Part shown: positions 18,043 through 38,661 of the stretch, piece after piece
Layout: every line of letters begins with the position of its first letter
Numbering within the stretch: position 1 is the first letter of the stretch
DNA from: a plasmid
Sequence record: NZ_CP096162.1
DNA: 64,000 nt
Direction: 5' to 3' (one strand)
Notes under the pieces: generated by a model
Database searches by the model: none
What the model was told of the DNA's origin: nothing
What the model saw: the letters and a program-made list of their open reading frames with translations, nothing else
Position numbers and translations under genes: made by a program

Positions 18043-18054
18043 GAGGTTGTTTGA

Positions 18055-19676: not shown

Positions 19677-19832
19677 TAACAGAGACAGCCACAACGGCTG
19701 TCTTTTTTTATGGAATAAAAAGGGGAGATACCTGGCTATTCCACTGAATGAACACAGAGGAGGTGTTGAGTTTGATTGTGTAACTGTTTCTCGTCCCTTT
19801 TGTCAAACCAATACAATGAAAAGGAGCAAATT

Positions 19833-20534: not shown

Positions 20535-20548
20535 TCGGAGGTGTTAGG

Positions 20549-21592
20549 ATGAAGCGATTCAACATCAAGCACGCACTTGTCTGCGTGCTTGTTTTCTTGG
20601 GAAGCTTGGGGCCTTTTGCGGCATCGACGCAGGCAGCAGAAACGCCGACACGAGATCTGGCGGTCACGCCTCTTTTTTCGGCGGATCAAGCGAAAAAGAT
20701 TACCAATTATTTTTCGGTTTCCGGAACTGGGAACCATGTTTTTCGGGCGCGCGTGACCAACAGTAGTGATAAACCGAAAAAAATAGTGGTGGAACTAACC
20801 GATGCGATCTCGACGCAAACCGGCATCCAGTACACGCACGCAACGAACAAGCAAGTCAAAAAAGCCTACCGGTTAGCGAAGTATAGTCCAACGCCAAAAA
20901 GAACGATTCGACTAGCAGCGCGGCAATCGAAAGTCATTTCGATCTCGATCAAGGTACCGAAAACGGTCAAAGGAACGATCTTAGGTGGCCTCCATTATTA
21001 TGAGGTGGCTCCACGTAAAGCTGGTTCCAAAACAGGCAAAAAGCAGGTATCGGTCCACTTGCATTATAGGCGTGATTACGTTCTCGCCGTTGCGATCCAT
21101 GCCAGTAAGTTTCCCAATCAAGATGCGTTTTATCTGAAGGAAGCAACATACCGCGTGTATCCGTCTGGCAGTGTGGTACAAACCGGTTTCGCCAATGAGT
21201 CGCCGGCGATCACCGCACCAAAAGGCTTTACCTATCGTGTGACGAAAAAGGATGCGAAGCATGCCTTGTTCCACGGAAAACTAGAGTCAATCAAAGCAGC
21301 GCCGATGACCACTGGTTTTTATGTGCTAGCATGGGGAGCCAAACGCGTGACCCCCGGCACGTATACGATCCACTTCTATGCGAAAGGAAAAGAAGTGGCT
21401 GTTCGTGATTTTACCATTCAAGCTGCGAAAGTAGAGCAGCTAGCGAAACAAAACAATCAACCGATCGCGGCGGTCACACCGTGGTGGATTATTCTCCTGT
21501 ATATGCTTCTCGGTGCAGGCATTGGGCTAGGCGTATTTTACGGCGCAAAACGCTATCAAGCAAACAAGCAGGCAGCGAAAAAACAAGAGTAG
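20549..21592 (+). CDS. CscA-like cell-surface protein (DUF916/DUF3324-type architecture) with a C-terminal transmembrane anchor and basic tail
   Basis: Signal peptide. C-terminus WWIILLYMLLGAGIGLGVFYGAKRYQANKQAAKKQE. Confidence 0.45.
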   Translation: MKRFNIKHALVCVLVFLGSLGPFAASTQAAETPTRDLAVTPLFSADQAKKITNYFSVSGTGNHVFRARVTNSSDKPKKIVVELTDAISTQTGIQYTHATNKQVKKAYRLAKYSPTPKRTIRLAARQSKVISISIKVPKTVKGTILGGLHYYEVAPRKAGSKTGKKQVSVHLHYRRDYVLAVAIHASKFPNQDAFYLKEATYRVYPSGSVVQTGFANESPAITAPKGFTYRVTKKDAKHALFHGKLESIKAAPMTTGFYVLAWGAKRVTPGTYTIHFYAKGKEVAVRDFTIQAAKVEQLAKQNNQPIAAVTPWWIILLYMLLGAGIGLGVFYGAKRYQANKQAAKKQE

Positions 21593-21604
21593 GAGGGGAA
21601 ATGG

Positions 21605-23197
21605 ATGCGATACAACTGGCAAGGATTTAGGTGGCTCCTATTTGCGTTAGTGGCTATCGGCTTTTTGACTCCTACAACCGTGTTTGCGGCAAATGGTGGC
21701 GATTGGGTCAAAGCAAATTGGGAGAATTATCCCGATAACACGGGAAAGTGGAACGTGCTTACACGAAACAAGATCACAAGTATCGGCAGCACGCAAAATG
21801 TAAAATGGACAGGCTTTCTCAACACCAAAGCGCTAAAAACCGTAGAGGCGACGTTTGAATTTGATTTCGTGCATGATGATCCAAACAACAAAGATACCGA
21901 TAACGACATGATCGGGTGGACCTTTCGGCACACCAGCTCAACGAGCAGCTTTAATGACATTACGAAGCAAAGCTTCTATTATGTGACGTTCCGTGGACCC
22001 TATGACGGCGACGGCACCGCACCAAGTCGATCGGGTGTGTTTAAAAATACGTCCGGCTTAGTTCCTCGAAGCAACAATGACACCGACAACACGACGCCGG
22101 CAGTCGGCGAAGGTCGAAACGATTATAAGTTACTGCAAGGAATCAATTTCATTTGGGCAGACAAGAAAACGTACCATGTCAAAATCACGGTAGAAGATGA
22201 AGCAGCCGGCACCCGTATTCGTGTCTACGTCGACGGAAAAAGTTATGCCAACTACGTAGATAAGGATCCACTGCCGATTGGTGGCTATGGCCCGTATACC
22301 TACAGTCAAGCACATGCTTATTTTTCAAATATCGAAATCAATGGAGCGTCCTTTTTGAATACACCTCCTGTCTTCACGCGAAGCAGCCCAGCCGACAATA
22401 CCACGTTTCGAAATAACCAAGCGATCCCCATCAAAGGGACGATGTCGGATAGCGATGCCACAGGCACGATCTCGGCTTACTATGCGATCGATAAACCCGA
22501 TGCGAAGCAGCTGATCCAGTCGGCGGCTAGTACCGGGAAAACTGTTTCCGTAAGTGGCCAAGTACCGGCAAGCGCGGTGAAGGATCTGACCGTTGGGAAA
22601 CATACGTTGTATGTTTGGTCGGAAGATAGTGAAAAAGCCGTTTCGGATAAGGTTGCGATCCCGATCGTGATCAAGGATGGGCAATTGAGCGTCGAGTGGC
22701 AAGGCGAACCCTTTTCTTTTGCGGCGATCGATCTAACGACTGGTCAAGACGGAAAAAGAACGACCACCTTACCAAAGCTAAAACTGCAAGACGGCACAGA
22801 CAGCACAAAGGGGTACCGACTTAGTGTTGAGGCAACTCCGTTAACGGAAGTTACGCCTCCAGGAGGATACGTCAAAGGCACCGCAGCACGCGCTTTTCCG
22901 GCGAATACGCTTCAGCTGAACGTAACCGGGAAAGAAACGATCACGTTAGGCGAGCAAGCATCGAACGCGCAGCAACCGACGATCCAACCGGGAACTTATC
23001 CGATTGACGCAGCGCCAGCTACCATCTTGCAGGCACAGGCAAGTAAGGGGAGTGGCATTTATACATTAGGCTTTCAAGCCAATAGTCTTTCTTTGAACTA
23101 TCAGCTGAAAAATGTCTATGCCGATCCTTACAATTATCCTAATCAAGAAACGCCCTATGAGACGACCGTCACAGCAACGATCGTTCAAGGACCATAA
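21605..23197 (+). CDS. Large secreted WxL-domain-like surface protein (CscC-like)
   Basis: Signal peptide. C-terminal GYRLSVEATPL...YETTVTATIVQGP is paralogous to the 19833 gene. Confidence 0.45.
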   Translation: MRYNWQGFRWLLFALVAIGFLTPTTVFAANGGDWVKANWENYPDNTGKWNVLTRNKITSIGSTQNVKWTGFLNTKALKTVEATFEFDFVHDDPNNKDTDNDMIGWTFRHTSSTSSFNDITKQSFYYVTFRGPYDGDGTAPSRSGVFKNTSGLVPRSNNDTDNTTPAVGEGRNDYKLLQGINFIWADKKTYHVKITVEDEAAGTRIRVYVDGKSYANYVDKDPLPIGGYGPYTYSQAHAYFSNIEINGASFLNTPPVFTRSSPADNTTFRNNQAIPIKGTMSDSDATGTISAYYAIDKPDAKQLIQSAASTGKTVSVSGQVPASAVKDLTVGKHTLYVWSEDSEKAVSDKVAIPIVIKDGQLSVEWQGEPFSFAAIDLTTGQDGKRTTTLPKLKLQDGTDSTKGYRLSVEATPLTEVTPPGGYVKGTAARAFPANTLQLNVTGKETITLGEQASNAQQPTIQPGTYPIDAAPATILQAQASKGSGIYTLGFQANSLSLNYQLKNVYADPYNYPNQETPYETTVTATIVQGP

Positions 23198-23216
23198 AAC
23201 AGGGGGTTAATGAAAA

Positions 23217-25520
23217 ATGAATTTATCTAAAAAGTGGATAATTCCACTTTTTTTATTAATCGTAATAATAGGTTTTTCCCTTCAACCGAAACTTGTTTCA
23301 GCAGCTACTGCAGAAGCGTGGGGACCTTATTCTTGGACTGATAGTAGTGGAACAACACATACTACGGCCCTAATTAAAATTGGTGGTAAGTTAGTCTATT
23401 GTATTGACCCGGATAAAAACGCGCCTTTTGGTGGACATAGCTATCAGAAAGGGAATCCTTATGACTATAGTACCCGTGCTATTTTTTACTATGGCTATGG
23501 TGGCGATGGTAATGAATTAGGAAATTCTATGACAGCTATGGTTAAAACATGGGTGGCACTAAACAATTGGTTAGAAGGTAAAGATACTCAAAAAACATAC
23601 AGTAATAAGGATTCACAAGTTTGGCGCCTAATTAAACATGCTAAGAAACAAGATGTACCGAAAAGAGATATAAAATTTAATAAATCAACGTATTCAAGTT
23701 CTATTAGTGGAAAAGTACAAAAGTCAGAAAAAGTAAAAATGACTGGTGATGGGCAAGCTACTATTAAAATACCTAAAAAAGTTACTATTCATCTTGATAA
23801 CAAAACACAAACTGGTGGAAATATAACAATAAAGACAAATGCAACATTCTATTTCACAGCTCCACTTGATTATGATAGTGAATTCAATACAGGAAATCTT
23901 AATGGAAAAGTCTCTGAATTTGCCTCAATTCTGTACTTGCCATCTGGTAATGGTATGCAAAGGTTAGCTGGAGGTGGATTTAAAGAAGACCCAGTTGTAA
24001 AGGCCGGTTTTAAAGTTCACTTTGAAGCAAGGCAAAGTAAAATCACAGTGGAACATCGTGATAAGTACGATGACGCTTTGCTGGAGAAATCTTCATCCGA
24101 GAAAACGATTGGAACATCCTACAGCTATAAAGCCAAGACAAAAATCACGAAGGGTTCTAACACGTATGTGCCAACTTCTACGAAAGAAAAAACTGGGACA
24201 GTCGGGTCTAAAGATAAAACGATTATCTTTTACTACAATTTACAACGTGAAATCAAAGTGGAACACCGGGACGCACGCGACGATCGGTTGATCAAGACCG
24301 AGAAATATACGAAACTGCGCGGTCAATCCTATTCTTACGGGCCAAAAAAAGACTTGAAAAAAGGCAGTTACACGTATCGACCAACAAGTACTAGTAAAAA
24401 AACCGGGACCGTTGGAAAAAGTAATGTGACGCTTACTTTCTATTATGATGTTCCGTTAGTAAAAGTAGCCCTAGAAAAAGTACAAGTCTATACGGCACTT
24501 TCTACCAAAGGGCTGCCGGTAAAAGTAAACCTAGCCAAAACCCTGATCTATAAAAATGCGACCAAAGGCATGACCAAGGCTGACCTTACGATCGGCTTAT
24601 ATCAAGGGAAAACGAAACTGGATAGCGTGACGTATAGTGCGCAAAAACTACCGAAGAAAGCAACCTTTACGATTAAAAAAGGACTGGCAGTGAATCAGCA
24701 TTTACCGTATACGATCAAGTTAGAAGGATTTAGTAAACATGATTTTGATGTAGTAAGTACGGCAAAGCAGCTCACTACACAAGGATACACAAGCTCGGAA
24801 GAGGTAGTGGAACCTAATGCTGCTAAAAAAACCAAAGTAGATGTGAAGCGCGTGATCATGACGGAAATCACACCAACAACGAAGATGAAAAGCTACTACG
24901 AGCGTTTTGTGTTGGAAAAAGCGAAGATCCAGGCGATGAAAACCGGATACGGCTTTGAAAACAATGTAGCCCTTACGTACAGCAACGAGTTAGCACAAAC
25001 AAAGACATTTAAGCCCTTTACCTTCGCCACACCGAAAAAGCTCATAGACAGCTTTGTAGAGGCGAAAACAAAGGGTGCTTCTTCTGGCTTAACTATGGTG
25101 GAAGAAAGCAGCAAAACCATGACAGCAGATGGAGTGACAACGACATCGATTCGGTACCAGCTGCCACATATCCAAGTAGAACGCCAAACTGGCTACCTAT
25201 TTTCCGATGAACAAGTAAAAGCCAAAGACAAACGGATTAAATATGGGCTTCGTGATGGTGGAAATAAGTTCTATTTACCGATTTGGATGGATCTTGGCAA
25301 GTACGATACGACCACAGCTACTGGAAAACTTGGGACACATGCGATTCAAGTGAATTGGAAAGATCAGGTCAATGTAGAAGCTTTCATGTATGTAGCAATG
25401 GACTCAAAAACGAAAGCAAAAGATGAAATTTTGTTAAAACCAATTAATGCAGACGATCCATTTCCTGAAGGATTACCTAATGGATGGAGCAAAGCAGATG
25501 TCAAATGGCTTGGCAAGTAA
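23217..25520 (+). CDS. Secreted adhesin-like protein with tandem MucBP-type repeats; no LPXTG
   Basis: Signal peptide. Two about 65-aa repeats (K/EI.VEHRD..DD.L...; ...TGTVG....T..FYY) typical of MucBP. C-terminus lacks a sortase motif or transmembrane segment. Confidence 0.55.
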   Translation: MNLSKKWIIPLFLLIVIIGFSLQPKLVSAATAEAWGPYSWTDSSGTTHTTALIKIGGKLVYCIDPDKNAPFGGHSYQKGNPYDYSTRAIFYYGYGGDGNELGNSMTAMVKTWVALNNWLEGKDTQKTYSNKDSQVWRLIKHAKKQDVPKRDIKFNKSTYSSSISGKVQKSEKVKMTGDGQATIKIPKKVTIHLDNKTQTGGNITIKTNATFYFTAPLDYDSEFNTGNLNGKVSEFASILYLPSGNGMQRLAGGGFKEDPVVKAGFKVHFEARQSKITVEHRDKYDDALLEKSSSEKTIGTSYSYKAKTKITKGSNTYVPTSTKEKTGTVGSKDKTIIFYYNLQREIKVEHRDARDDRLIKTEKYTKLRGQSYSYGPKKDLKKGSYTYRPTSTSKKTGTVGKSNVTLTFYYDVPLVKVALEKVQVYTALSTKGLPVKVNLAKTLIYKNATKGMTKADLTIGLYQGKTKLDSVTYSAQKLPKKATFTIKKGLAVNQHLPYTIKLEGFSKHDFDVVSTAKQLTTQGYTSSEEVVEPNAAKKTKVDVKRVIMTEITPTTKMKSYYERFVLEKAKIQAMKTGYGFENNVALTYSNELAQTKTFKPFTFATPKKLIDSFVEAKTKGASSGLTMVEESSKTMTADGVTTTSIRYQLPHIQVERQTGYLFSDEQVKAKDKRIKYGLRDGGNKFYLPIWMDLGKYDTTTATGKLGTHAIQVNWKDQVNVEAFMYVAMDSKTKAKDEILLKPINADDPFPEGLPNGWSKADVKWLGK

Positions 25521-25533: not shown

Positions 25534-25932
25534 GTGAAAGGTTATATCAGTATCTGTATTATCCTTTTTGTTAGTGCATTCCTATTGCTGGGGATATTTC
25601 ACTATGCGATAGAGGATTACAAGCATAAATCTGTTGTTTTAACAGCAACGGAGTCTGCCAGAGCGGCAAGTATAGAAAATGTAGACAAATCGTTGCGTGT
25701 TTCTAACGGAGAGGTAATACTATCTACCGATAATTTTGAGAAAGATTTTAAACGATTATTTGCAAAAAACACGAATATCGTTTTAAAAGACCCATCTTAT
25801 ACTTTTGATTATTTAAAGGAAAAAGATAGCGATAGTCTTAAAGCGGTACGCGTAAAGATCAAGAATGATGGGGTAAGCTATCAGGCGACCCTTGTTTCGG
25901 ATATCGAAACAAATAAGGAGGAAAAGAAGTAA
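25534..25932 (+). CDS. Pseudopilin/TadE-like small protein (N-terminal transmembrane helix plus beta-rich domain)
   Basis: GTG start after a GTGAGG RBS. N-terminal hydrophobic helix, about 100-aa extracellular domain. Confidence 0.35.
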   Translation: MKGYISICIILFVSAFLLLGIFHYAIEDYKHKSVVLTATESARAASIENVDKSLRVSNGEVILSTDNFEKDFKRLFAKNTNIVLKDPSYTFDYLKEKDSDSLKAVRVKIKNDGVSYQATLVSDIETNKEEKK

Positions 25933-27185
25933 TGCAAGCAATGACTGTAGATCCACATGCTTTTGTTAGTTCAGAGGTCATCGATAGTATTTCGCAAGAT
26001 CTCATAAAAAAGCACTCTGAACTTTATCTACAAGCGTTCACGGACGAAGAAGCCAGAGAAGTACTACGAGAACTGATTGCTGCTGAACATGCCAGTGTTT
26101 TAAATGAGGATCATTTGATTGACTATTGTATTCAAGAAATGGTGGGGCTGGGCATCATTGAGGCGATTATCCAGGACGAGAGCGTAACAGATATACGTTT
26201 TAACGGAACGGAATTGATTATTAAGACCAATGAACGCAAATATGTATATGAAGCCATTGAAGTCACGGAAGATTATATCATCAAGATCATCCAAAAGTTT
26301 GCGAACGCTGTGCAAAAAGAATTTACTACAAAATCGCCTATACTCAGTGCAGAATTTAAAAACTTGCGAATTAATGCCATTCATAAGGATATCAGTTCTT
26401 ATGGAACGGCAATGGCTTTGCGTGTAACGCGTCCGCATTTAGCGTTGAATGAAACTAATTTTAGCAGTTTTGCCCCTAAGCCGATAGAACGTTTCTTGCA
26501 GGCAGCTGCGCAAGCAAAATCAAATATAATCATTTCTGGAGAAACTGGAACGGGTAAAACGGAATTGCAAAAATTTTTAATCCAATCGATTGGCTTTCAA
26601 AACAATATCATCATGATCGAAGATACGAATGAAAGTCATGTAAAAACGATGTTTTCTGAAAAAGATATTACTTCCTTATTAACCTCTGAAACGATTGGTA
26701 TTGATAAATTAGTGCAACAAGCATTACGACAAGATGCAGATTATATCATCGTGAGTGAGACACGTGGGAGTGAAGCGTATCAGATGCTGCAAGGTGTTTT
26801 ATCTGGTCACGCTGTCATTACAACGCTACATGCAAGAAATGCAAATGCGATTCGAACGCGATTTATCAATATGTGTCGTATGGAGTACACCTTTGATGAA
26901 ACAGTGTTAAGTGAAGATTTTGACAGAGAATTTCAATTAGGTATTCATATCAAGGCTGCCACAATAGATGGCAAAGTACATCGCTATTTAGATGAAGTGA
27001 TTGAATTTCGACCAAATGGGGCGAACATCACACTTTACAAACAAACCTTAGATGCAGAAGGAAATTTGAAAATCAAAACAATAAATCCGTATAGTGAAGA
27101 ACTTCAGGAACACTTCAACGAGGGGCGTATCGATTATCATAATAACTTTACAAAAGAGCTAAGAACAGCTTGTCCTTCTGAATGA
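25932..27185 (+). CDS. TadA/CpaF/VirB11-family secretion ATPase
   Basis: 417 aa. Walker A GETGTGKTE, Walker B IIMIEDT, His box, N-terminal domain with DIRFNG. Confidence 0.8.
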   Translation: MQAMTVDPHAFVSSEVIDSISQDLIKKHSELYLQAFTDEEAREVLRELIAAEHASVLNEDHLIDYCIQEMVGLGIIEAIIQDESVTDIRFNGTELIIKTNERKYVYEAIEVTEDYIIKIIQKFANAVQKEFTTKSPILSAEFKNLRINAIHKDISSYGTAMALRVTRPHLALNETNFSSFAPKPIERFLQAAAQAKSNIIISGETGTGKTELQKFLIQSIGFQNNIIMIEDTNESHVKTMFSEKDITSLLTSETIGIDKLVQQALRQDADYIIVSETRGSEAYQMLQGVLSGHAVITTLHARNANAIRTRFINMCRMEYTFDETVLSEDFDREFQLGIHIKAATIDGKVHRYLDEVIEFRPNGANITLYKQTLDAEGNLKIKTINPYSEELQEHFNEGRIDYHNNFTKELRTACPSE

Positions 27186-27222
27186 TGTTTCTCAGAAAAG
27201 AAAAAAGGAGGCTTGAGCGTCC

Positions 27223-28026
27223 ATGAAACGGAAAACCTATACGATTGATGAGTTAAACGCTTATAAGACTGCTTACGACAAGCCGATTGTTCGACAAGAT
27301 ATTATCACTATCATGAGTAAACCTTTTATTTTCACATTTCTATTTGCGTACATCGTTTACTTTAATTGGTGGATCAGTTTGATCTATGCTGGAATAGCAG
27401 CCTTTTATGCCTATCGCGTGTTATTACCGGGACAAATCAAACGGGTGTATGTCGAGAAAAGTTTTATTGAAAGACATAATATGATCAACCATATTACGCA
27501 AATATTAACCAATGAAGAAGAAACCGTTTTGAGTGCATTGGCGCAAGTCACGGATGGGGCAAATGGAAAGTTTAAGGAGGATCTCTTAAAATTGCGTCTG
27601 CAGCTTTCAGGAGCAAATGATAGTCAGATACTCCGTGCATTTAAGGAGTTTGAAGACGCTTATCAAGAAGATAAGATTTTTCAAATGTATGTCAACCAAT
27701 TAACGACCACTATGATAGAAGGTCGTACCAATGTAGATACACTCAAAAATCTAAAATCTTACCATAATACATTAAAGAAAATGCAAGATGGTTTTTTTGC
27801 AGAAAAATTGCATTTACATCGAAAACTTATGGGCATGATTCAAGGTGGAGCTATTTTAATTGGTGCTATTATTGTTGGTCTTGGATGGCAGCAATTTATT
27901 GACCAGTATGCACATACGTTGATAGGGATTGTTTTTTCTACGGTGTACATGTTTGCCATTGGAATAGCGATTCATCGTCATAACCTTCTTATGCAAGACG
28001 ATAAAGTAATGGAGGTGAGGGTGTGA
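27223..28026 (+). CDS. TadB/GspF-like platform membrane protein
   Basis: Topology read directly: transmembrane segment, about 130-aa cytoplasmic helical domain, two C-terminal transmembrane helices. Confidence 0.45.
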   Translation: MKRKTYTIDELNAYKTAYDKPIVRQDIITIMSKPFIFTFLFAYIVYFNWWISLIYAGIAAFYAYRVLLPGQIKRVYVEKSFIERHNMINHITQILTNEEETVLSALAQVTDGANGKFKEDLLKLRLQLSGANDSQILRAFKEFEDAYQEDKIFQMYVNQLTTTMIEGRTNVDTLKNLKSYHNTLKKMQDGFFAEKLHLHRKLMGMIQGGAILIGAIIVGLGWQQFIDQYAHTLIGIVFSTVYMFAIGIAIHRHNLLMQDDKVMEVRV

Positions 28027-28814
28027 TGCGAAAACAAAAAGAAGCGCTACTTCAGGAAGAACGCCCATATGGTTCTAGTTTCTGGGTAAGAATTGCTGAA
28101 AAAAATCTATTCACCATGCTTATAGAAATGGAACAAATACCACCTTTTGAGACAAAGGAAGAACAGATCCACTATTTAATTAACTTGCAGCGAAAGAGAG
28201 TTTTCAAAGGGATTTTACTCCTTCTGATCGGTGTTCTTGGGGCCATTTTTATAAACAAATGGTTATTACTCGCTTTTTTTGTCCTAGCATGTCTTTTTTA
28301 CAGAATGGACTACACAAAAGTGGTTAAAACATACAAGTATTGGAAGTTCGAAAAGCAAATTGAATTTCTTAAATTTATTCGCTTACTCATTCCAATTTTG
28401 TTAGAAAAGAAAACCTCTCTTTATCTCGCCATGAATAAAATGCTTCATCGACTAGATGAGGATAGTAAGTATATCAAAGATGAAATAGAACGCTTCTTGA
28501 TCGCCTTGAACCAGCAACCAAATAGTATCGAACCATTTATAAACTTTGCGAAAAGAGCCTCTGGTACTGAAGAGGCTCTTTTAATGTTGCGAACACTTTT
28601 TGCGTATCAGCAAAAATCAAATGATCCAACGATTATTAAGGAGTTAGGCGAACTTTCCAATGAGCAATTGATGGGAGGGGTCGATGAGATTATTCGATTT
28701 AAAACGAAGCGATTCGGGATCTATCCTTCGCTAACGTTAGCATCGATTTTTTTCATCGTTATTGGCTATACCATTGCGATGCTTCTTCATGGCATGCAGG
28801 CCATTCATTTATAA
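28023..28814 (+). CDS. TadC/GspF-like platform membrane protein (paralogous topology to the 27223 gene)
   Basis: Overlaps the upstream gene (ATGA). Two transmembrane segments, a cytoplasmic domain and a C-terminal transmembrane segment. Confidence 0.45.
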   Translation: MMRKQKEALLQEERPYGSSFWVRIAEKNLFTMLIEMEQIPPFETKEEQIHYLINLQRKRVFKGILLLLIGVLGAIFINKWLLLAFFVLACLFYRMDYTKVVKTYKYWKFEKQIEFLKFIRLLIPILLEKKTSLYLAMNKMLHRLDEDSKYIKDEIERFLIALNQQPNSIEPFINFAKRASGTEEALLMLRTLFAYQQKSNDPTIIKELGELSNEQLMGGVDEIIRFKTKRFGIYPSLTLASIFFIVIGYTIAMLLHGMQAIHL

Positions 28815-28845
28815 GAAGAAATAGATTTGAAAAGGTGGTGATTTC

Positions 28846-29208
28846 TTGTTAGAAGGAACAACGATGGAACTATCAAAGATTTTTATTAGTATTTTTATGA
28901 TTTTAAGTATTGCTTCTGTCAGTATCTTTTTCATTAATCTGAATCAAGCGCAGGACTTTAAACAGATGGTTAATTATCAAATAGAGCGACATGGAGGACT
29001 CACAACGGAAGCACAAACGAAAATCAAAAACTACAGTAAAGATCACTTTGATAATCAATTTACCGTTAAAAGTAATTCTGGTACCGACAAGATGGAATAT
29101 GGAAAAGAAGTATCCTATACGGTAAACGGCAAAATTAAGTTGTTGTTTATCACGCTACCTGTCCAAAATATTGCGATTAAAGGTGCGGCAATTTCCATGG
29201 TGAGGTGA
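28846..29208 (+). CDS. Pseudopilin-like protein (N-terminal transmembrane helix plus beta-rich domain)
   Basis: 120 aa, hydrophobic helix ISIFMILSIASVSIFFI. Confidence 0.35.
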   Translation: MLEGTTMELSKIFISIFMILSIASVSIFFINLNQAQDFKQMVNYQIERHGGLTTEAQTKIKNYSKDHFDNQFTVKSNSGTDKMEYGKEVSYTVNGKIKLLFITLPVQNIAIKGAAISMVR

Positions 29209-29214
29209 CCAATC

Positions 29215-29361
29215 ATGCTAGATCAAAACACAACCCGTTTATTATTTGCTGTTCTGGGAGTCATTGTATTTGGGATTATCATTCAGTTGGTTCATGCAAC
29301 CTACCCAGATATATTGGCAGATATGCACCAAATGTTTATGGAACGAATTCCTAAGTTTTAA
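29215..29361 (+). CDS. 48-aa hydrophobic mini-protein (MLDQNTTRLLFAVLGVIVFGIII...YPDILADM...). Candidate pilin-like subunit.
   Basis: Not in the ORF track (below size cut-off). RBS GGTGAGGTGA 7 nt upstream. Paralog of the next gene. Confidence 0.35.
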   Translation: MLDQNTTRLLFAVLGVIVFGIIIQLVHATYPDILADMHQMFMERIPKF

Positions 29362-29401
29362 AGAAAAAAACTATAAACCAAAAATAGAATGGAGAATGTA
29401 T

Positions 29402-29572
29402 ATGTTAGATTCAAATACTGATCGTTTATTGTGGACCGTTGTTACTGTTGTTGTCGTAGGAGCTATTTTGCTTATTGTCAAAACGGCTTTTCCAGAGTTA
29501 GTTACGGACGTCATTTCTGCTGTTAGAAGCAAGCTAACGGCAGGTGCGATCACTGGTCCATTTGGTAGATAA
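29402..29572 (+). CDS. 56-aa hydrophobic mini-protein (MLDSNTDRLLWTVVTVVVVGAILLIV...FPELVTDV...), paralog of the 29215 gene
   Basis: Shared MLDxNTxRLL start and A.FP[DE][IL][LV].D motif. RBS GGAG. Confidence 0.35.
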   Translation: MLDSNTDRLLWTVVTVVVVGAILLIVKTAFPELVTDVISAVRSKLTAGAITGPFGR

Positions 29573-29658
29573 GCATAAGAATATATCAAGAGATCCCAGC
29601 ATATAGGATTATGTGTTGGGATTTATCAGTAAACTAACCTAGATAGAGGAGCAGGGGC

Positions 29659-29877
29659 ATGCGCACAAAGATAGAAAAAAATAGTGTTTGTTTAACGGTA
29701 AATAGCAATGAATGGTCAAAAATAAGCAAAACGAAAATCGTTCATTTACCGTATTCGGAAAAAATAACAGTTGGAACCAAAATCGAGATTACCTGTAAGC
29801 AAACAGGTACTTATACAACCTATCAGATCCATATGATATATGGACTGAAGCATTATACCAAAGTCGAACTTAGATAA
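29659..29877 (+). CDS. Hypothetical 72-aa protein
   Basis: RBS GGAG. Beta-rich. Confidence 0.35.
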   Translation: MRTKIEKNSVCLTVNSNEWSKISKTKIVHLPYSEKITVGTKIEITCKQTGTYTTYQIHMIYGLKHYTKVELR

Positions 29878-29889
29878 GGAGGGAGATCT

Positions 29890-30519
29890 GTGGGAAATCC
29901 GGCGTTAGAGGAAGCAGAAGAAATAAAAAAATTAAAAGAGAACCTTGCAGCTAACGGAGATAGTTTTGATGAGTGGCTTCTTATGACAGCTAAATATACA
30001 AACCAAGTGTATGAAGGCAATGAGGTTGTGGAAGAAACTTCTATTGAGACGCCAAGCTTTTGGGATAAATTTAAATATGCTTGGGTGACAACCTGGAAAT
30101 GGATTTGGAGAATGATCCAGCGTTATCGTCAATATCGGAAACAGAAGAAGGAAAAACGCAGTCATAATGAACAACCATCAGCACCAAAAGAAGAAGCCGT
30201 TCATCAAGAAAAAATGGCACAAGCGCTGACTGCAGTCATCCAAAACGTTCAAAAAGAAATGCAATATCAACTCGAAGAAGATCGTGCTGCTTCCAGGAAA
30301 CTGATTCGGCAACAGGAGAGAGCCATAAAAAAGAGTGAACGAAAGCAGCAAATGTTACTAAAAGACGTTAAACGGAGACAAACAACTACGCAATCTTTAT
30401 CTGTCATCCGTTCGGTTTTTCCGTGGGCTGTTGTCATTGGTACGGTTGTTTGTATTTATCTCATTTATCAAAGTCAACCTGAATGGATCGTACATGTTTG
30501 GAAAAAGATAGATGGATAA
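29890..30519 (+). CDS. Hypothetical charged coiled-coil protein with a C-terminal transmembrane anchor
   Basis: RBS AAGGAGGGAG. Hydrophobic helix near the C-terminus. Confidence 0.45.
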   Translation: MGNPALEEAEEIKKLKENLAANGDSFDEWLLMTAKYTNQVYEGNEVVEETSIETPSFWDKFKYAWVTTWKWIWRMIQRYRQYRKQKKEKRSHNEQPSAPKEEAVHQEKMAQALTAVIQNVQKEMQYQLEEDRAASRKLIRQQERAIKKSERKQQMLLKDVKRRQTTTQSLSVIRSVFPWAVVIGTVVCIYLIYQSQPEWIVHVWKKIDG

Positions 30520-30550
30520 ACAATATCTCAAATTATAAGGAGGATAAAAA

Positions 30551-30730
30551 ATGAATTATGTTATTTATGCAGTTATTGCTATTGTATTAGCTTTTGTGGT
30601 GCTAACGCTTGTTAGTTTATGGAAAAGAGATCTTCAAGAAAGTTTCAAGAAAATAGTCATTGTCTCTTTTGCAGCTGGAGTTGTGGTTGATGTTCTTTAT
30701 CTTATGCTTCATGGGTTTTTGATTGCATGA
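30551..30730 (+). CDS. 59-aa two-helix membrane mini-protein
   Basis: RBS AAGGAGGA. Not in the ORF track. Overlaps the next gene (ATGA). Confidence 0.35.
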   Translation: MNYVIYAVIAIVLAFVVLTLVSLWKRDLQESFKKIVIVSFAAGVVVDVLYLMLHGFLIA

Positions 30731-31581
30731 TCATACCTATCAGTAAGATGATCCGACGGTTAAAACTAGATGAAAAGACGACACGGTACACATGGACACT
30801 TACCATAAGTGTTTTGGTACGTAGGCTTGTTGAAGCAATGACTGCGATCTTTATAGTAGGAGTAGGATTTATTGGCATGCAAAGTTGGACCACTTGGATA
30901 GAAAAAGGTTTATCTGGAAATGAGGTAAGCACCAAATACTTAAAAGGAATGGCTGATGGTTATACAGTTTGCTGGATGCTACTTTATTTCGTTGCCTTTA
31001 TTTTTCTTCTCTCATTCGTGATGATGCGGATTCCTAGTGAAAAAAAATGGTGGGGGATTTTAACTATTGGAAATCTCTTTATTAATTCATTTGGTTTAAG
31101 TGCTTGGTTATTTAATCCTTATCTCAACAATCAAGGAAGAAAACATGCTTTGATACTTCTTGGAATATCCATTTTTCTAGTCGGCATCGTGAAATTTACG
31201 GAGTGGTATCTGAAGCGGAAAATCATGAAGGACATTATAAAAAATTGGCCTAAAGAGAATGTTTATTTAACAGACTTTAATCCCACTGAAGAACAAATTA
31301 AAGATTCTATATTACCAATCAATCATGAATGGGAACGCTACATTATAAGCGATGAGATATTTACGGTTCGCTATAAATGTCTCAAAAGTAATTACAAAAG
31401 AATCCAAAAGGATACCAGTGATATACAGCAACAAAAAGGAAACGAGCAACTAATTGTTACTCGGAAAATTAAGATCAATCAAGCTGTCGAAATGGATATG
31501 CTTAAAGAGATCAGAATTGTTACGAAAAGTCATCCGATTGTCTCTAAAATAATCCATCCTATGGAAGCAACAAAATTATAA
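30727..31581 (+). CDS. Polytopic membrane protein with a cytoplasmic C-terminal domain, unknown function
   Basis: 4-5 N-terminal transmembrane helices. Confidence 0.45.
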   Translation: MIIPISKMIRRLKLDEKTTRYTWTLTISVLVRRLVEAMTAIFIVGVGFIGMQSWTTWIEKGLSGNEVSTKYLKGMADGYTVCWMLLYFVAFIFLLSFVMMRIPSEKKWWGILTIGNLFINSFGLSAWLFNPYLNNQGRKHALILLGISIFLVGIVKFTEWYLKRKIMKDIIKNWPKENVYLTDFNPTEEQIKDSILPINHEWERYIISDEIFTVRYKCLKSNYKRIQKDTSDIQQQKGNEQLIVTRKIKINQAVEMDMLKEIRIVTKSHPIVSKIIHPMEATKL

Positions 31582-31605
31582 ATAGTTGGGAAGGAAGTTG
31601 AGAAA

Positions 31606-31785
31606 ATGTCAACAAAAGTAGAAAGAGATCGAAATAAAAAACTAGCACAAACGATTATGGGCGTTAATGGAGTTGACTATGATGAATGGTTAAACCAGCA
31701 GCATAGTGACTACATTGCCCAAAATGCAGATATCCTTATGAAAGGAGTAAAATCCTTAGAAAAACAAATAAACGTTACTAACTGA
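31606..31785 (+). CDS. Hypothetical 59-aa soluble protein
   Basis: RBS GGAAGGAAG. Followed directly by a terminator. Confidence 0.3.
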   Translation: MSTKVERDRNKKLAQTIMGVNGVDYDEWLNQQHSDYIAQNADILMKGVKSLEKQINVTN

Positions 31786-31816
31786 CCATGTAGTGAAGCT
31801 ACATGGTTTTTTTATT
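31786..31816 (+). terminator. Terminator ACCATGTAGTGAAGCTACATGGT + TTTTTTT
   Basis: Perfect 9-bp stem with a T-run. Sub-operon boundary. Confidence 0.55.
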
Positions 31817-31894
31817 GGGTTTGGTCGTTTCCCCAGCTATTCATAAAATTTTGTATCAGCGAAAAACGGAACCAACTTTGAAGGAGGAAGGAAC

Positions 31895-32185
31895 ATGAAT
31901 CAACTTTATCTTGCCACTATGGCAAAAATCCATCTTGCGGTAGGAGCAGCGGACGGAATGAATGGATTGATCCGAACCGGTCAAGGAGTCATCAAATGGC
32001 TTCAAAAAGGAGCGTTAGTGGGCGCGGCCATCGCGTTATGCTGGGGTGGTTACTTATTAATGCTTGGTGGAACGAATGGGCGACGTTCCTGCATTCCTAT
32101 TTTTCTAGGTGCTGCAGCTGGACTTGTCATTGTTATGGGTTGCTATCAACTCGCAAACGGCGTTAATACTAACGTCAAATTCTAA
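31895..32185 (+). CDS. VirB2/TrbC-like pilin-type protein (signal-like N-terminus, two hydrophobic helices, Gly/Ala-rich)
   Basis: 96 aa. Hydrophobic helices separated by a short polar loop; the layout is typical of T4SS pilins. Confidence 0.4.
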   Translation: MNQLYLATMAKIHLAVGAADGMNGLIRTGQGVIKWLQKGALVGAAIALCWGGYLLMLGGTNGRRSCIPIFLGAAAGLVIVMGCYQLANGVNTNVKF

Positions 32186-32238
32186 TAAAGAGAAGAGAGG
32201 GGATATCCTCTCTCTTTTTTACTTTTGAGGAGGTACCT

Positions 32239-32739: not shown

Positions 32740-35289
32740 ATGCATAAAACAGCAGGAAAATTTAGATCCTTTATTGGCAGCTGGTATTTTATTCTACCGT
32801 TTTGTGTTGTACTCTTTTTGTTTTTGATCGGTCTGGCTAACTTTGGGATTCATGTTTTTGAACAGTGGAATCAAAGTGGCCCTTTAGAATTATCCAACAC
32901 AAAAACAGCACCGACTTTTACTATCAGTAGTGATTACTTTTTCCAATATGCTTACGCGGATCATCCTGGATATTACAAGGTGATCTATTTTATTGCCATT
33001 TGCATTAGTTTGAACGTGGGCTATAGGATACGTTCCAATTTAGGGACTTTATTAAAAGGACTTAAATCTGGTGGTTCTTTTGAAGTGATGAAGGAATTAA
33101 AGAAACAATATATTATGGTTCCTGAAGCCGGAACGAAATTTCCAGGAGAAGGGGGAATGCCAATCGCAAGGTTTTCCTATTGGACGAAAAGAAAGGTAAC
33201 GATATTTGGAAAGCAACTAACAATATTTTGGCTCACTTACCGTCTATTAGTAGATAACAGTAATACGAATACAATGCTTTTGGGAACAACCAGATCTGGT
33301 AAATTCGTTTATTTCTTTTCCTATTACATCGATAATTTGTCACGTGCGCTGCTTTTAAAAGATCGGCCTAGTTTTGTTATATCCGATTTAAAAGGTGAGA
33401 TCCTCGTTGCGTTCAAGCGTTTATTAGAAGCAAGAGGATATGATGTTCATGCTTTAAACTTAATCGATCTTAAATTATCTATGTTTTATAATCCCTTACA
33501 AAAAGTCATTGATGCCTATATTGCAGGAGAGTATGACGAGGCACAAAAAGAATGCGCCACGATCGCAAAGATCTTATATAGCGAAGAAGGAGACTCCAAA
33601 AACAAATACTTTACAAATTCTGCGCAACATCTATTTTCAGCGCTAGTCCTAGCGATTTGCGATAAAGCAATAAATGTGACACGTCATATCACTATTGCAG
33701 ATGGAAAAATAGAACCGCTTACGGACCTTTCTAAAGAAATCATTATCAGGGGAAATAAAGGAGATAGGGTACTGTTGACGTATCCAAATGGCGAGCACAA
33801 ACAAATTGATTTTCTTCTATCAGAAACGAAGCATATTCCGCTAGAGGAGAAACTTCAAAAGGAGCAAACCTTTACCTTCCAGTTTGTAGATCGCGAAACA
33901 GGGGAAGTGGAGACCTTCAATGTTCCGGTATTTGAGACACACATTGAGACAATTACGCTTTATGGTGTCTATATGTTAATTCGGAAACTAGGAACAAGTT
34001 CGAGTAAGGTTGAAATCATGAGGACTGTTAATGGAGAAAAAATTCCAGATGAAAAACAAGCTTTAGAGTATTACTTTGAACAATTCGATGATCATCATCC
34101 AGCTGGTAACCAGTTTGCCCAAAGTGAATTTGGATCATCTGATTCCAAAGGAGACGTCTTCAGTACCACCGTTGAAAAATTATCTCAATTTTCACTTGGT
34201 GCTAACGGCCGTGTTACTTCAAAAAATAGTTTGGATTTTGAAAACATTGGTTTTGGGGATAGACCTGTTGCGTTATTCTTACTGATTCCTGAATCAGACA
34301 AATCAAATAACATGTTAGCATCTATTGCAATCAAACAAGTGTATCAAGCTAATATCAATCGCGCAAACAAAACACCAGGACGTAAATGTAAACGAAAAAT
34401 TTACTTTATGCTCGATGAAGCTGGTAACTTAATTCGCATTGAAGATTTAGATACTATGATGACGATGGGACTAGGCGCAAATATGATCTTCACATTAGGA
34501 CTTCAAGAAATTATTCAGCTTGAGAAAGTGTATGGTGCGCAAGATGCGGAAACCATACGCGGTGCTTGTGGGAACACGGTTTATTTGAAGTCTAGCTTAG
34601 GCAAAACGAATAAAAGCATCAGTGAAGAACTCGGCACCTATGAATATGAATCGAAAAGTCGTTCTGGCCAAACCTTCAGTTTGGATAAACATAAAAGTGA
34701 GAGCGTGGACGATCGGCCGCTTATGCGTCCAGAGGAACTTGCATTACTTAGAAAAGGAGAGATGATTATTTACCGAACGATGAAACGTGAAGATAACAAA
34801 GGGAAGGACATTACACCTAGACCGATTTTTATTCATGGTAAAAATCGAATTTTACCATCTTATAAAAGACTGAAAAACTGGATATCTATAAAAGGTAAGT
34901 CTTTGCAAACGATTGGACTTCCAGAGGAGGTTGGGAAAGTAGATTTAGAAGCTATCACACCAACAGACTATATTCCATATGCGAAGCAAATGCATGCCAA
35001 TAGACCTTATTTTCCGGATAGTTTCTTCCAATCATCTTGGGAAAATCAATCTCCAACAACGTTCTTCAGTGAAGCGCAGCGCAAGCAAATACAAACTTTA
35101 TTAGAAAAAGAACCCAACCTAGATATAGAGCAGAATCAACATTTATTAAATCCTTCCACGATGGAAGGTTTTTTAGATAACTGGAAGTTATTAAAGCAAC
35201 AACAATTCCTAAGTGATAAAGTATACAGTTTGATTCTTGCGTGGATCGAGCAAGGAATTGAAGCAAGCAAAAGAGAGGAGGCAAGTTAA
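32740..35289 (+). CDS. Type IV coupling protein (VirD4/TraG/TcpA-like, FtsK-like ATPase) with N-terminal transmembrane helices
   Basis: 849 aa. Walker A GTTRSGKF, Walker B IYFMLDEAGN. Confidence 0.78.
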   Translation: MHKTAGKFRSFIGSWYFILPFCVVLFLFLIGLANFGIHVFEQWNQSGPLELSNTKTAPTFTISSDYFFQYAYADHPGYYKVIYFIAICISLNVGYRIRSNLGTLLKGLKSGGSFEVMKELKKQYIMVPEAGTKFPGEGGMPIARFSYWTKRKVTIFGKQLTIFWLTYRLLVDNSNTNTMLLGTTRSGKFVYFFSYYIDNLSRALLLKDRPSFVISDLKGEILVAFKRLLEARGYDVHALNLIDLKLSMFYNPLQKVIDAYIAGEYDEAQKECATIAKILYSEEGDSKNKYFTNSAQHLFSALVLAICDKAINVTRHITIADGKIEPLTDLSKEIIIRGNKGDRVLLTYPNGEHKQIDFLLSETKHIPLEEKLQKEQTFTFQFVDRETGEVETFNVPVFETHIETITLYGVYMLIRKLGTSSSKVEIMRTVNGEKIPDEKQALEYYFEQFDDHHPAGNQFAQSEFGSSDSKGDVFSTTVEKLSQFSLGANGRVTSKNSLDFENIGFGDRPVALFLLIPESDKSNNMLASIAIKQVYQANINRANKTPGRKCKRKIYFMLDEAGNLIRIEDLDTMMTMGLGANMIFTLGLQEIIQLEKVYGAQDAETIRGACGNTVYLKSSLGKTNKSISEELGTYEYESKSRSGQTFSLDKHKSESVDDRPLMRPEELALLRKGEMIIYRTMKREDNKGKDITPRPIFIHGKNRILPSYKRLKNWISIKGKSLQTIGLPEEVGKVDLEAITPTDYIPYAKQMHANRPYFPDSFFQSSWENQSPTTFFSEAQRKQIQTLLEKEPNLDIEQNQHLLNPSTMEGFLDNWKLLKQQQFLSDKVYSLILAWIEQGIEASKREEAS

Positions 35290-35292
35290 TTT

Positions 35293-37497: not shown

Positions 37498-37499
37498 GC

Positions 37500-38649: not shown

Positions 38650-38661
38650 GAGGAGATAAAA

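Follow-up and report, generated by a model that had tools for sequence, protein, structure and literature searches.

The stretch of DNA analyzed here (the window; 64,000 nucleotides of plasmid, sequence record NZ_CP096162.1) is Listeria plasmid sequence, 100% identical to pLIS25 and 99% identical to pLGUG1. Every open reading frame that a sequence-only reading had described between positions 25534 and 32185 is present, on the + strand, and the block lies upstream of the VirD4, VirB6-like, VirB4 and CwlT genes. According to the RefSeq annotation of identical or near-identical plasmids, this T4SS core spans 32740-42370 (+) and encodes VirD4 (32740-35289), a VirB6-like protein of the pLS20_p028 family (35293-37497), a DUF5592 protein (37500-37853, also matched by Pfam DUF5592), VirB4/DUF87 (38662-40596) and a CwlT-like hydrolase (41285-42370), all on the + strand; the same source places a MobP2 relaxase at 43950-45113. 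On the other side of the block is the gene for a thioester-domain (TIE) adhesin (23217-25520, +; Pfam TED_2), an orthologue of pLS20 p34 in which a motif search for LPxTG found no LPXTG sorting signal. The pLGUG1 TIE orthologue is 51% identical to p34 (PMC8092201). Genes for WxL/WxLIP surface proteins are also located upstream of the block.

The gene at 25932-27185 (+), which corresponds to pLS20 gene 37, pAW63 CDS22 and the pXO2 'VirB11' gene, encodes a CpaF/TadA-like motor ATPase, of hexameric type, of the T2SSE superfamily (Pfam T2SSE, E = 5.4e-28), in agreement with the family first proposed for it. Its catalytic motifs are intact (Walker A GETGTGKT at residue 203, Asp box at 230 and His box at 298). 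The NCBIfam profiles TadA-conjugal (2.3e-32) and VirB11 (1.5e-31) both match below the NCBIfam cutoff, and the NCBIfam profile search gave no SpoIIIAA family match. Among PDB chains the ranking was CpaF (86.8 bits, 1.2e-23), archaeal GspE and then VirB11 (57.6 bits, 9e-15); with phmmer, the CpaF proteins of pXO1 and pCE3 scored ~139 bits, Gram-negative CpaF 68-98 and VirB11/TrbB 42-56. The pLS20 orthologue, labeled 'CpaF family protein' in UniRef, gave 394 bits. By these scores the ATPase is nearer to the CpaF of Tad pili than to VirB11; Gram-negative VirB11 belongs to the same superfamily, and is likewise encoded in conjugative T4SS operons with VirB4 and VirD4, but its similarity to the window ATPase is lower. 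A neighbor-joining tree groups the ATPase with pXO1/pCE3 CpaF at a bootstrap of only 54%, which counts against the reading that we favor below.

Two further genes that overlap by 4 nt (27223-28026 and 28023-28814, both +) encode orthologues of pLS20 p38 and p39. Each product has an N-terminal transmembrane (TM) hairpin or single TM, a ~140-aa cytoplasmic helical domain and C-terminal TMs; relative to TadB and TadC, the first N-terminal TM is missing. The first is of TadB/GspF type: Pfam T2SSF matches 12 of the 76 members of its family (best 2.1e-9), hhalign gives 95-98% against TadB and against the TadB-like protein of pXO1/pCE3, and identity to the pLS20 orthologue is 46%. The second, the TadC equivalent, is matched by hhalign to the TadB-like family (94.2-94.4%, E~1e-7, 171-185 columns) and to the second pCE3 membrane protein (93.9%), with no direct match to Gram-negative TadC, and UniRef names its pLS20 orthologue 'GspF domain-containing protein'. 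Relatives of ~550 aa are natural fusions of both proteins (P0025: 34% identity, E 8e-28). Together with the comparison of a predicted model with GspF-like folds, these matches establish that the two membrane proteins are paralogous and of GspF/TadB-TadC type, as had been suggested.

The platform model is matched equally well by PilC and by SpoIIIAB, a GspF-like component of a channel that is not a pilus and one of the model's top structural matches, which counts against a filament. In SpoIIIAA-SpoIIIAB of the Bacillus sporulation channel, a Firmicute system with no known pilus, a secretion-type ATPase likewise goes with a GspF-like membrane protein, whereas the window has two platform paralogues, pilin-like proteins and a conjugative context. 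It is possible, if doubtful, that here too no filament is made and that the ATPase energizes the channel as the VirB11 equivalent of a Gram-positive T4SS; the GspF-like pair would then only anchor the ATPase at the channel, as in the SpoIIIAA-SpoIIIAB pair of the sporulation feeding tube, and the small proteins described next would be structural parts of the channel or of a wall-spanning conduit, not polymerizing subunits. Against this stand the clearly higher CpaF scores of the ATPase and the fact that, to our knowledge, Gram-negative VirB11 has no GspF-type partner.

The block also encodes two small N-anchored proteins. The 132-aa product of 25534-25932 (+), orthologous to pLS20 p36, has a single N-terminal TM (residues 4-22), and three orthologues of this P36 family match Pfam DUF5411 below threshold (window 0.0017, pLS20 1.4e-5, E. 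faecium 0.047); it is a candidate minor pilin-like component. The 120-aa product of 28846-29208 (+), the DUF4320-like orthologue of pLS20 p40 (P40), has a predicted model with a pilin-like helix-plus-sheet 'lollipop' architecture, which makes it a candidate minor pilin or pseudopilin. The earlier description of two pseudopilin-like proteins is supported for the 120-aa protein by this architecture; neither protein matched Pfam TadE at E<=0.1, and hhalign against Gram-negative TadE/TadF was not significant. DUF4320 and DUF5411 genes also occur in fuller Tad-like loci of pXO1 and pCE3 that contain CpaB, a TadZ-like ATPase, CpaF and two membrane proteins, a setting that speaks against a role confined to a channel.

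Two tandem genes after that for P40, at 29215-29361 and 29402-29572 (both +), encode the 48- and 56-aa mini-proteins that the sequence-only reading had recognized as paralogues, a relationship confirmed by alignment; the first belongs to the pLS20 p41 family (family HMM 8.5e-25). They start with MLDQNTTR and MLDSNTDR and have the motifs YPDIL and FPELV, respectively, and in the first the short polar N-terminus is followed by one TM and an amphipathic tail. Genes of this kind, with strong Shine-Dalgarno sites, are present in one to three tandem copies in 12 of 14 related loci (in Lysinibacillus by annotation only; a short Eubacterium contig ends before the mini position), and their products are 45-60 aa long with a single TM. 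The N-terminal octapeptide is kept from Listeria to Clostridia via synonymous codon changes, and two pLS20 copies with identical products have different codons at 12 of 40 positions, every change being synonymous, a pattern indicating strong purifying selection. The mini-proteins have no leader, no G/XXXXEY motif and no Pfam match; the Flp profile, with which the earlier reading had proposed to search them, gave nothing at E<=0.1, and hhalign against Gram-negative Flp was not significant. We consider the 48-aa protein a candidate for the major filament subunit, and tandem, identical and strongly constrained mini genes, along with the pilin-like P40, are easier to reconcile with a polymer than with a fixed channel.

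Between the mini genes and the end of the block, the window carries an insert specific to the pLGUG1 lineage (29659-31581, +; ORFs of 72, 209, 59 and 284 aa), which is missing from all other loci compared. The 72-aa ORF is uncertain as a gene; the 209-aa product has a coiled coil and a C-terminal TM, the 59-aa product has two TMs, the 284-aa product has ~3 TMs by hydropathy, and none had a family match in Pfam and NCBIfam profile searches. The p44 and VirB2-like genes come almost directly after the mini genes in pXO2, E. faecium and pLS20, and the insert is probably outside the module core. The p44 orthologue of the window is a 59-aa soluble protein (31606-31785, +) of a type detected by HMM in 10 of the 14 loci. 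The last gene of the block (31895-32185, +), orthologous to pLS20 p45, encodes a divergent VirB2/TrbC-family (T4SS pilin-like) protein with two TMs. The window copy alone gives a weak Pfam TrbC match (E=0.0023), but syntenic orthologues exceed the Pfam thresholds (TrbC 4.9e-14 in pXO2 and 2.8e-15 in E. faecium; T4SS_pilin 1.3e-7 in pLS20), upholding its original assignment, and the gene is syntenic in 12 of the 14 loci, the remaining two ending before that position.

VirB11 is needed for pilus biogenesis in Gram-negative T4SSs, and a genuine TrbC/VirB2-family gene syntenic with the block raises the idea that the ATPase and platform extract and polymerize this protein, the mini-proteins being chaperones or accessory factors. 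We regard this as quite unlikely: the handling of VirB2 pilins is generally ascribed to VirB4 and not to GspF-type platforms, and the VirB2-like gene is nearer to those for VirD4, VirB6 and VirB4, with lineage-specific inserts separating it from the module in the window.

The ordered block was found in 14 loci, from Listeria, Bacillus, Enterococcus, Lysinibacillus, Peribacillus, Niallia, Paraclostridium, Terrisporobacter and Eubacterium. The order adhesin-P36-ATPase-TadB-TadC-P40-mini-VirB2-VirD4 is invariant, with the mini and VirB2-like genes each confirmed in 12 of the 14; the TIE adhesin gene is directly 5' of the module in all 14, and T4SS genes adjoin the block in all 14, so that the same-strand association first noticed in the window extends to its relatives. 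Such conservation, with the synonymous codon changes, indicates real genes and not chance ORFs. It is very unlikely that the block is plasmid cargo for a Tad pilus of adhesion or biofilm formation that has no functional tie to DNA transfer. Tad pili are adhesion organelles, plasmid-borne cargo Tad loci exist (e.g. Photobacterium pPHDD1) and the WxL/WxLIP genes upstream would suit such a role, but in all 14 loci, which span Bacilli and Clostridia, the block sits inside a co-directional transfer operon, with the conjugation adhesin on one side and VirB2/VirD4 on the other. Of the 260 plasmids in which the TadB-like gene was found, 223 are typed conjugative, and gene overlaps suggest translational coupling with neighbors.

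By gene content and order, the block corresponds to genes 36-45 as conserved throughout the pLS20/pXO2/pAW63 family of conjugative plasmids, and is not the undescribed system that had been proposed. Its genes have one-to-one orthologues, identically arranged, in pLS20 genes 36-45, pXO2-14 to -22 and pAW63 CDS 17-25 (Val-Calvo et al. 2021, PMC8557374; Van der Auwera et al. 2005, PMC1196294), with the adhesin upstream and the T4SS core downstream as in the window, which differs in its four-ORF insert, its more divergent VirB2-like protein and in having both mini genes after P40. The family ATPase was named a VirB11 homologue in 2005 (PMC1196294), that of Listeria pLM5578 was published as VirB11 in 2010 (PMC2834635) and that of pLS20 as 'putative VirB11' in 2021 (PMC8557374). 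Because it was already published as VirB11 in Gram-positive conjugation, the ATPase falls into a known conjugative family, an outcome that the sequence-only reading had itself named as refuting it and that applies to the ATPase. The claim of novelty is only partly right: the searched literature names just the ATPase and lists the neighboring genes as unknown (PMC8557374, PMC1196294), and the pLS20 papers describe the family as having no pilus components (PMC8557374; PMC11730352), a point against the reading given below.

Tad/Flp systems (type IVc; TadA/CpaF, TadB, TadC, Flp, TadV, TadE/F, TadZ, CpaB/RcpC) resemble the module in their CpaF-like ATPase followed by two paralogous GspF-domain proteins, their small N-anchored accessory proteins and the size of Flp (~45-60 aa), which the often tandem subunit candidates share. 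The window module differs in its leaderless candidates, its embedding in a T4SS operon and its lack of a prepilin peptidase, TadZ, CpaB, the Flp motif G/XXXXEY and a TadE Pfam signature; searches of the plasmid and of all 14 loci turned up no prepilin peptidase, TadZ or CpaB, which, like the missing Flp and TadE matches, counts against a filament. Outside the family, the ATPase (~139 bits), the platforms (hhalign 98% and 94%) and DUF4320/DUF5411 have their closest relatives in the Tad-like loci of pXO1 and pCE3 (B. cereus group), and a Tad-like locus has also been noted for Listeria LGI1 (PMC2834635). The pXO1 and pCE3 loci likewise adjoin Gram-positive conjugation genes (a WxL/DUF916 cluster and Tcp-type genes, respectively), but they retain CpaB as well as a TadZ-like AAA ATPase, which the window module has lost, and their 67-88-aa subunit candidates, with no Pfam match, show by eye a long Flp-like leader that the window's lack.

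We therefore favor, at a probability of roughly 0.55, the reading that the block is a reduced Tad-derived (type IVc) filament or pseudopilus module fixed in the conjugation operon of the pLS20/pXO2/pAW63 family. Its ATPase and platform part is well supported; that a pilus is actually made we infer. The ATPase would dock on the platform heterodimer and pull the mini-proteins out of the membrane; with the two pilin-like proteins as primers, the mini-proteins would polymerize as a pilus or pseudopilus that is short and crosses the thick cell wall. Since the mini-proteins have neither leader nor G/XXXXEY motif, polymerization would proceed without prepilin-peptidase processing; we know of no type IV filament system that functions without a prepilin peptidase, which counts against this reading. 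The filament would most plausibly serve mating-pair formation; it may carry the adhesin, a context gene whose product, with no sortase signal, could be its cargo or sit at its tip, and/or help the T4SS channel (VirB2-like, VirB6, VirB4, VirD4) to span the wall.

A possible functional analogue is the thin pilus of IncI1 R64, a conjugative plasmid that requires this type IVb pilus for mating in liquid only; there too a type IV filament kit in a conjugative element stabilizes liquid mating pairs. R64 itself encodes a prepilin peptidase, its pilins are classical, and its pilus differs from the window module in class and host envelope. pLS20 mates efficiently in liquid, its TIE adhesin is required mainly there, and the anchoring of that adhesin is an acknowledged open question (PMC8092201). 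As pLS20 and pXO2 carry the same block, Gram-positive plasmids of this family may build a mating filament.

Although an earlier sequence-only reading put it forward as an undescribed system, the block at 25534-32185 belongs to the known pLS20/pXO2/pAW63 family of conjugation operons, and its ATPase is already in the literature. In 2005, a 'VirB11' and four flanking 'conserved hypothetical' genes with L. monocytogenes homologues were described in pAW63, pXO2 and pBT9727 (PMC1196294); virB11 was reported in Listeria pLM5578 in 2010 (PMC2834635), and pLGUG1 was found to carry a pXO2-like 40-kb 'incomplete T4SS' region (Kuenne et al., 2010); and in 2021, gene 37 of Bacillus subtilis pLS20 was listed as a 'putative VirB11' and genes 36 and 38-41 as 'unknown', in a paper which says that the family encodes no pilus components (PMC8557374). 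Reviews and primary papers likewise describe Gram-positive conjugation systems as lacking pili (PMC8092201, PMC8557374, PMC11730352). The premise that Firmicute T4SSs have no such ATPase thus holds for Tn916, ICEBs1 and pCW3 and fails for the pLS20/pXO2/pAW63 family, whose ATPases have been published as VirB11. The sequences and the ATPase are well known, and the labels CpaF, GspF domain and DUF4320 in databases already hint at a Tad-like reading. In the openly searchable literature, that is, outside subscription journals, we found no paper in which genes 36-41 are interpreted as a filament module of Tad-like type, or in which a pilin candidate is seen in the p41 family. Mutagenesis papers on lactococcal pNP40 and pUC11B were set aside as functional data for the block because the system there differs (pIP501-like).

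The 6.65-kb region matches L. monocytogenes pLIS25 (NZ_MZ090005.1) at 100% identity and L. grayi pLGUG1 (NC_014496.1) at 99.2%. All the ORFs originally listed for it are present on the + strand; RefSeq labels one of them 'ATPase, T2SS/T4P/T4SS family' and all the rest hypothetical. By HMM synteny and RefSeq annotation, the window carries the collinear family set of a thioester-domain (TIE) adhesin (23217-25520), p36, p37 (the ATPase), p38, p39, p40, p41, p44 (31606-31785) and p45, which continues downstream with VirD4, a pLS20_p028-family VirB6-like protein, DUF5592, a DUF87/VirB4 ATPase, a CwlT-like bifunctional lytic transglycosylase/C40 peptidase and a MobP2 relaxase. WxL and WxLIP surface proteins and a 530-aa protein lie upstream together with the adhesin. 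The same order is found in pLS20 (genes 36-45, where PGAP calls the ATPase gene tadA), in B. anthracis pXO2, and in one E. faecium and one Lysinibacillus plasmid.

An HMM survey of 14 loci, made up of annotated plasmid loci and nine from a genome scan with a narrower alignment, shows how tightly the block is tied to T4SS genes, as had been anticipated. The adhesin gene is directly upstream of the module in all 14, and 12 have the order TIE adhesin, optional mini-protein, P36, ATPase, TadB-like, TadC-like, P40, one to three mini-proteins, optional p44 and VirB2-like protein; the other two (survey loci L016 and L020) stop short of the VirB2-like end. VirD4 and VirB6-like genes come next in 8/8 loci whose sequence extends far enough, and VirB4 in the 4/4 that reach its position, with zero exceptions. 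That the module makes adhesion pili carried as cargo is a minor alternative: it has the WxL/WxLIP surface-protein genes upstream on its side and this unbroken linkage to transfer genes against it. By tblastn, the TadB-like protein is encoded on 260 PLSDB plasmids (Bacillus 179, Listeria 34, Enterococcus 31, Lactococcus 5), 223 of them typed conjugative. The sequence-only reading had named the MPF_FA class; the MOB-suite types given by PLSDB are MPF_T for the relatives pXO2, pLS20 and E. faecium p32, and mobilizable only for pLIS25 and pLGUG1.

Several further features of these plasmids were recorded. Between the mini-protein and p44/VirB2-like genes, window 29659-31581 holds ORFs of 72, 209, 59 and 284 aa (three membrane proteins), an insert seen only in the pLGUG1/pLIS25 lineage and without a family match. 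Terminator-like hairpins with T-runs lie directly before and after the VirB2-like gene (31784-31808 and 32194-32213, + strand); a promoter/terminator scan of the region gave a count not above chance. Operons of the pLS20 type use processive antitermination. Just upstream of the WxL genes, a 362-aa ORF (18588-19676) has a near-threshold Pfam match to Endotoxin_C2 (Cry1Aa domain IV; E 7.8e-7, 30.0 bits against a cutoff of 30.7), and G+C over the surface-protein genes (18000-24000) is 0.41-0.48, compared with 0.33-0.40 in most of the window. In pXO2, the VirD4 gene (20257-22090) aligns to that of the window in four separate pieces only; judged from this alignment, the gene is probably disrupted in this record, which fits the published non-self-transmissibility of pXO2.

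The ATPase (25932-27185) has an intact Walker A motif (GETGTGKT, residue 203), Asp box (230) and His box (298), and a Walker B motif that we read by eye as DYIIVSETRG. Among NCBIfam models it scores 112.5 bits with TadA-conjugal TIGR03819 and 109.6 bits with VirB11 TIGR02788 (cutoff 249.95), both far below their cutoffs; since no equivalog cutoff is reached, it is a divergent member of the CpaF/TadA group. Against PDB sequences, Caulobacter CpaF ranks first (1.2e-23, 86.8 bits), ahead of archaeal GspE (4e-21), with VirB11-like/HP0525 (~9e-15, 57.6 bits) and FlaI (1.8e-13) lower. In phmmer comparison with references from annotated plasmids, the scores are 138-140 bits with CpaF from the pXO1 and pCE3 Tad-like loci, 98 and 68 bits with CpaF of Gram-negative origin, and 42-56 bits with VirB11/TrbB. 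In a neighbor-joining tree the ATPase family lies beside pXO1/pCE3 CpaF, with 54% bootstrap only, and apart from the VirB11 clade (88%). On these comparisons CpaF/TadA-like is a better description of the ATPase than VirB11; membership of VirB11 was rejected on the sub-cutoff TIGR02788 score, the position outside the VirB11 clade and the bit scores lower than those to CpaF.

Searched alone in Pfam and NCBIfam, the membrane proteins, mini-proteins and P40 of the window had zero matches, so that family-level and structural tests were needed. A profile search for the TadB-like protein (27223-28026) found only 106 relatives among 1.84 billion representative proteins, and the family is therefore small. 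Scanned singly, 12 of 76 members match Pfam T2SSF (best 2.1e-9) and 2 of 76 match Spore_III_AB. The TadC-like protein (28023-28814) retrieved itself alone in a homologue search, and neither alignment matched PDB sequences when used as a profile. In profile-profile comparison the TadC-like protein aligns in register with the TadB-like family (94%, E ~1e-7, 171-185 columns) and with the second pCE3 membrane protein (93.9%). There are also natural TadB-like/TadC-like fusions of 545-572 aa (relatives P0025, P0079, P0086, P0094 and P0095), in one of which, P0025, the C-terminal half matches the TadC-like protein with 34% identity (E 8e-28); by sequence, such fusions recreate the two-repeat GspF-like architecture. 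Both proteins have the hydropathy expected of the GspF type, with TM(s), a cytoplasmic domain and TM(s) again, and their pLS20 orthologues are named 'GspF domain-containing protein' in UniRef. Because of the T2SSF matches, profile comparison, fusions and layout, the GspF-like character first suggested by topology stands, and two single-domain GspF-family proteins are encoded after the ATPase, as TadB and TadC are in Tad loci. We are confident that these three genes encode an ATPase and a pair of platform proteins derived from Tad machinery. The main rival is that they form a VirB11-like or SpoIIIAA/AB-like energiser of the channel, with no filament; this agrees with the published VirB11 label, the ATPase comparisons, the tandem mini-protein genes and the pilin-like P40 speak against it, and we regard it as rather unlikely.

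Two small anchored proteins flank this trio. P36 (132 aa; 25534-25932) repeatedly gives sub-threshold matches to DUF5411 (1.4e-5 for pLS20, 0.0017 for the window, 0.047 for E. faecium). P40 (120 aa; 28846-29208) belongs to DUF4320 by sequence comparison: hhalign gives 90% to the pXO1/pCE3 DUF4320 proteins, its orthologues in pLS20 and pXO2 have sub-threshold Pfam DUF4320 matches, and NCBI names relatives DUF4320. An AlphaFold2 model of P40 (pLDDT 88.9, from a 63-sequence alignment) has a 48-residue N-terminal helix, the first part of which is the TM segment, followed by another helix and a sheet of three strands. Such a 'lollipop' is the general plan of type IV pilins. Of the top 60 hits, at least 14 are type IV pilins or pseudopilins, including Thermus PilA4, PilX, GspK, GspI, EpsI, S. 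sanguinis PilE1 and C. difficile PilJ; Foldseek found no significant match to the model in the PDB. We take the predicted architecture as pilin-like rather than as proof of homology. P36 and P40 had no Pfam TadE match, and hhalign comparison with Gram-negative TadE/TadF profiles was not significant.

The mini-proteins (29215-29361, 48 aa; 29402-29572, 56 aa) are present in one to three copies in 12/14 loci, the Lysinibacillus copy, below the HMM threshold, being counted by annotation and the short Eubacterium contig ending earlier. Each gene has a strong Shine-Dalgarno sequence in front of it. From Listeria to Paraclostridium and Terrisporobacter the N-terminus, MLDQNTDR, is near-invariant; after it come a hydrophobic helix of ~20 residues, in most cases F/Y-P-D/E-L/I, and a tail that is amphipathic. 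In pXO2-like plasmids another subtype, MLENNVFR, occurs after P40. In pLS20 (NC_015148.1) there are tandem genes at 13019-13162 (start tentative), 13191-13334 and 13361-13504, of which RefSeq annotates the middle one only. The octapeptide is kept through synonymous codon variation, and the pLS20 copies 2 and 3 encode identical proteins while differing, always synonymously, in 12 of their first 40 codons, strong evidence that the mini-proteins are expressed and maintained in several copies. A degenerate remnant was considered and rejected on the intact ORFs, this purifying selection and the occurrence in 14 loci of ~9 genera. In size, single helix, tandem duplication and position beside the platform and pilin-like genes, the mini-proteins match what is expected of an Flp-type major subunit, and we infer a filament-subunit role for them. 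Their eight-residue polar N-terminus, with no Gly, EY motif or leader, differs from that of Flp prepilins; there was no Pfam Flp match at E<=0.1, and hhalign with Flp gave a non-significant 8.8%.

The window VirB2-like protein (31895-32185), with two predicted TMs, scores 18.5 bits against a TrbC cutoff of 27.9, which is weak alone; its syntenic orthologues are above the Pfam TrbC or T4SS_pilin thresholds, which contradicts the published absence of a VirB2 homologue from pLS20-family operons (PMC8557374). That the module assembles the VirB2-like protein is a minor alternative; the two are encoded in one conserved order, in which the mini-proteins stand nearer to the platform genes.

The module shares with Tad/Flp systems a CpaF-like ATPase followed by two GspF-family platform proteins, and differs from them in having no Flp leader or G/XXXXEY motif, dedicated prepilin peptidase, TadZ/CpaE or CpaB/RcpC. 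No TadV/CpaA peptidase is annotated on pLIS25 or pLGUG1, phmmer with Photobacterium TadV, a weak test, found no match in the 14 loci, and TadZ/CpaE and CpaB/RcpC are absent from the window and from those loci; a ComC peptidase of the host might supply the activity in trans. Because several defining Tad features fail, we do not class the module as a Tad system: it is a reduced, peptidase-less, T4SS-embedded Tad derivative. Fuller Firmicute loci, of which it looks like a reduced version, are found in B. paranthracis pCE3 (9717-25083) and pXO1 (4298-15624); these encode CpaB, a TadZ-like AAA ATPase, CpaF and ~300-aa membrane proteins (two in pCE3, one annotated in pXO1), flanked by DUF4320 and DUF5411 genes, the family of P40 and the one to which P36 gives sub-threshold matches. 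Both loci also encode 67-88-aa proteins with, judged by eye, an Flp-like leader. The pCE3 locus adjoins TcpD/TcpE genes of Tcp-type, pCW3-like conjugation, so that Tad-like kits are linked to another Gram-positive transfer system, unrelated to the first, and the pXO1 locus adjoins WxL/DUF916 genes. In the window, the adhesin and module are preceded by genes for one WxL-domain and one WxL-interacting protein (DUF916 / WxLIP_PGBD + HBD; 19776-21592), and a WxL and DUF916/DUF3324 pair follows the pXO1 locus (15696-17457), which hints at a recurring link of WxL surface complexes with these modules. A more distant reduced module without a peptidase, in Evansella clarkii MTIV01000022.1 (6099-10761), has a T2SSE ATPase (591 aa), two membrane proteins (273 and 350 aa), a DUF4320-like protein (162 aa) and a protein of 77 aa; a large protein with a PXO2_28_C domain is encoded a few kb upstream of it.

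The reading that we favor, at a probability of roughly 0.55, is that the CpaF-like ATPase and TadB/TadC-like platform assemble a filament or pseudopilus of mini-proteins without prepilin processing. The ATPase would drive a TadB/TadC-like heterodimer, and the short filament would be primed by the DUF5411/DUF4320 proteins. This central claim, that a filament exists, is unproven. The pLS20 TIE adhesin has no known anchoring signal, is sortase-independent and is needed mainly in liquid mating (PMC8092201), and the window orthologue also lacks LPXTG; the C-terminus of TIE is conserved (INADDPFP...GWS...WL). The filament might be the stalk of the adhesin, which is plausible. The full form of the proposal, in which the pLS20, pXO2, pAW63, Listeria and Enterococcus plasmids build a true Tad-derived surface pilus of leaderless 45-60-aa p41-family subunits, primed by DUF5411/DUF4320 proteins, independent of a peptidase and serving as anchor or stalk for TIE, is more tentative, and we hold it to be doubtful.

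How TIE, which has no sortase signal, remains attached to the cell, and why liquid mating is efficient, are acknowledged questions for pLS20 (PMC8092201); a filament acting as anchor or stalk would explain the latter and makes TIE anchoring directly testable. Reading genes 36-41 as a Tad-derived kit turns about six conserved 'unknown' genes into a concrete model testable by pLS20 genetics; the reading also bears on pXO2-like plasmids in the B. cereus group and on resistance-gene-bearing Listeria and Enterococcus plasmids. Even if the module proved to be no more than a VirB11-like energiser anchored by GspF-type proteins, it would be an unusual T4SS/type IV filament hybrid. The filament reading conflicts with the textbook view of pilus-free Gram-positive conjugation and, if true, would give Gram-positive bacteria their first conjugative pilus of the type IV filament class, and would be the first case of a type IV-filament-like machine working without prepilin processing.
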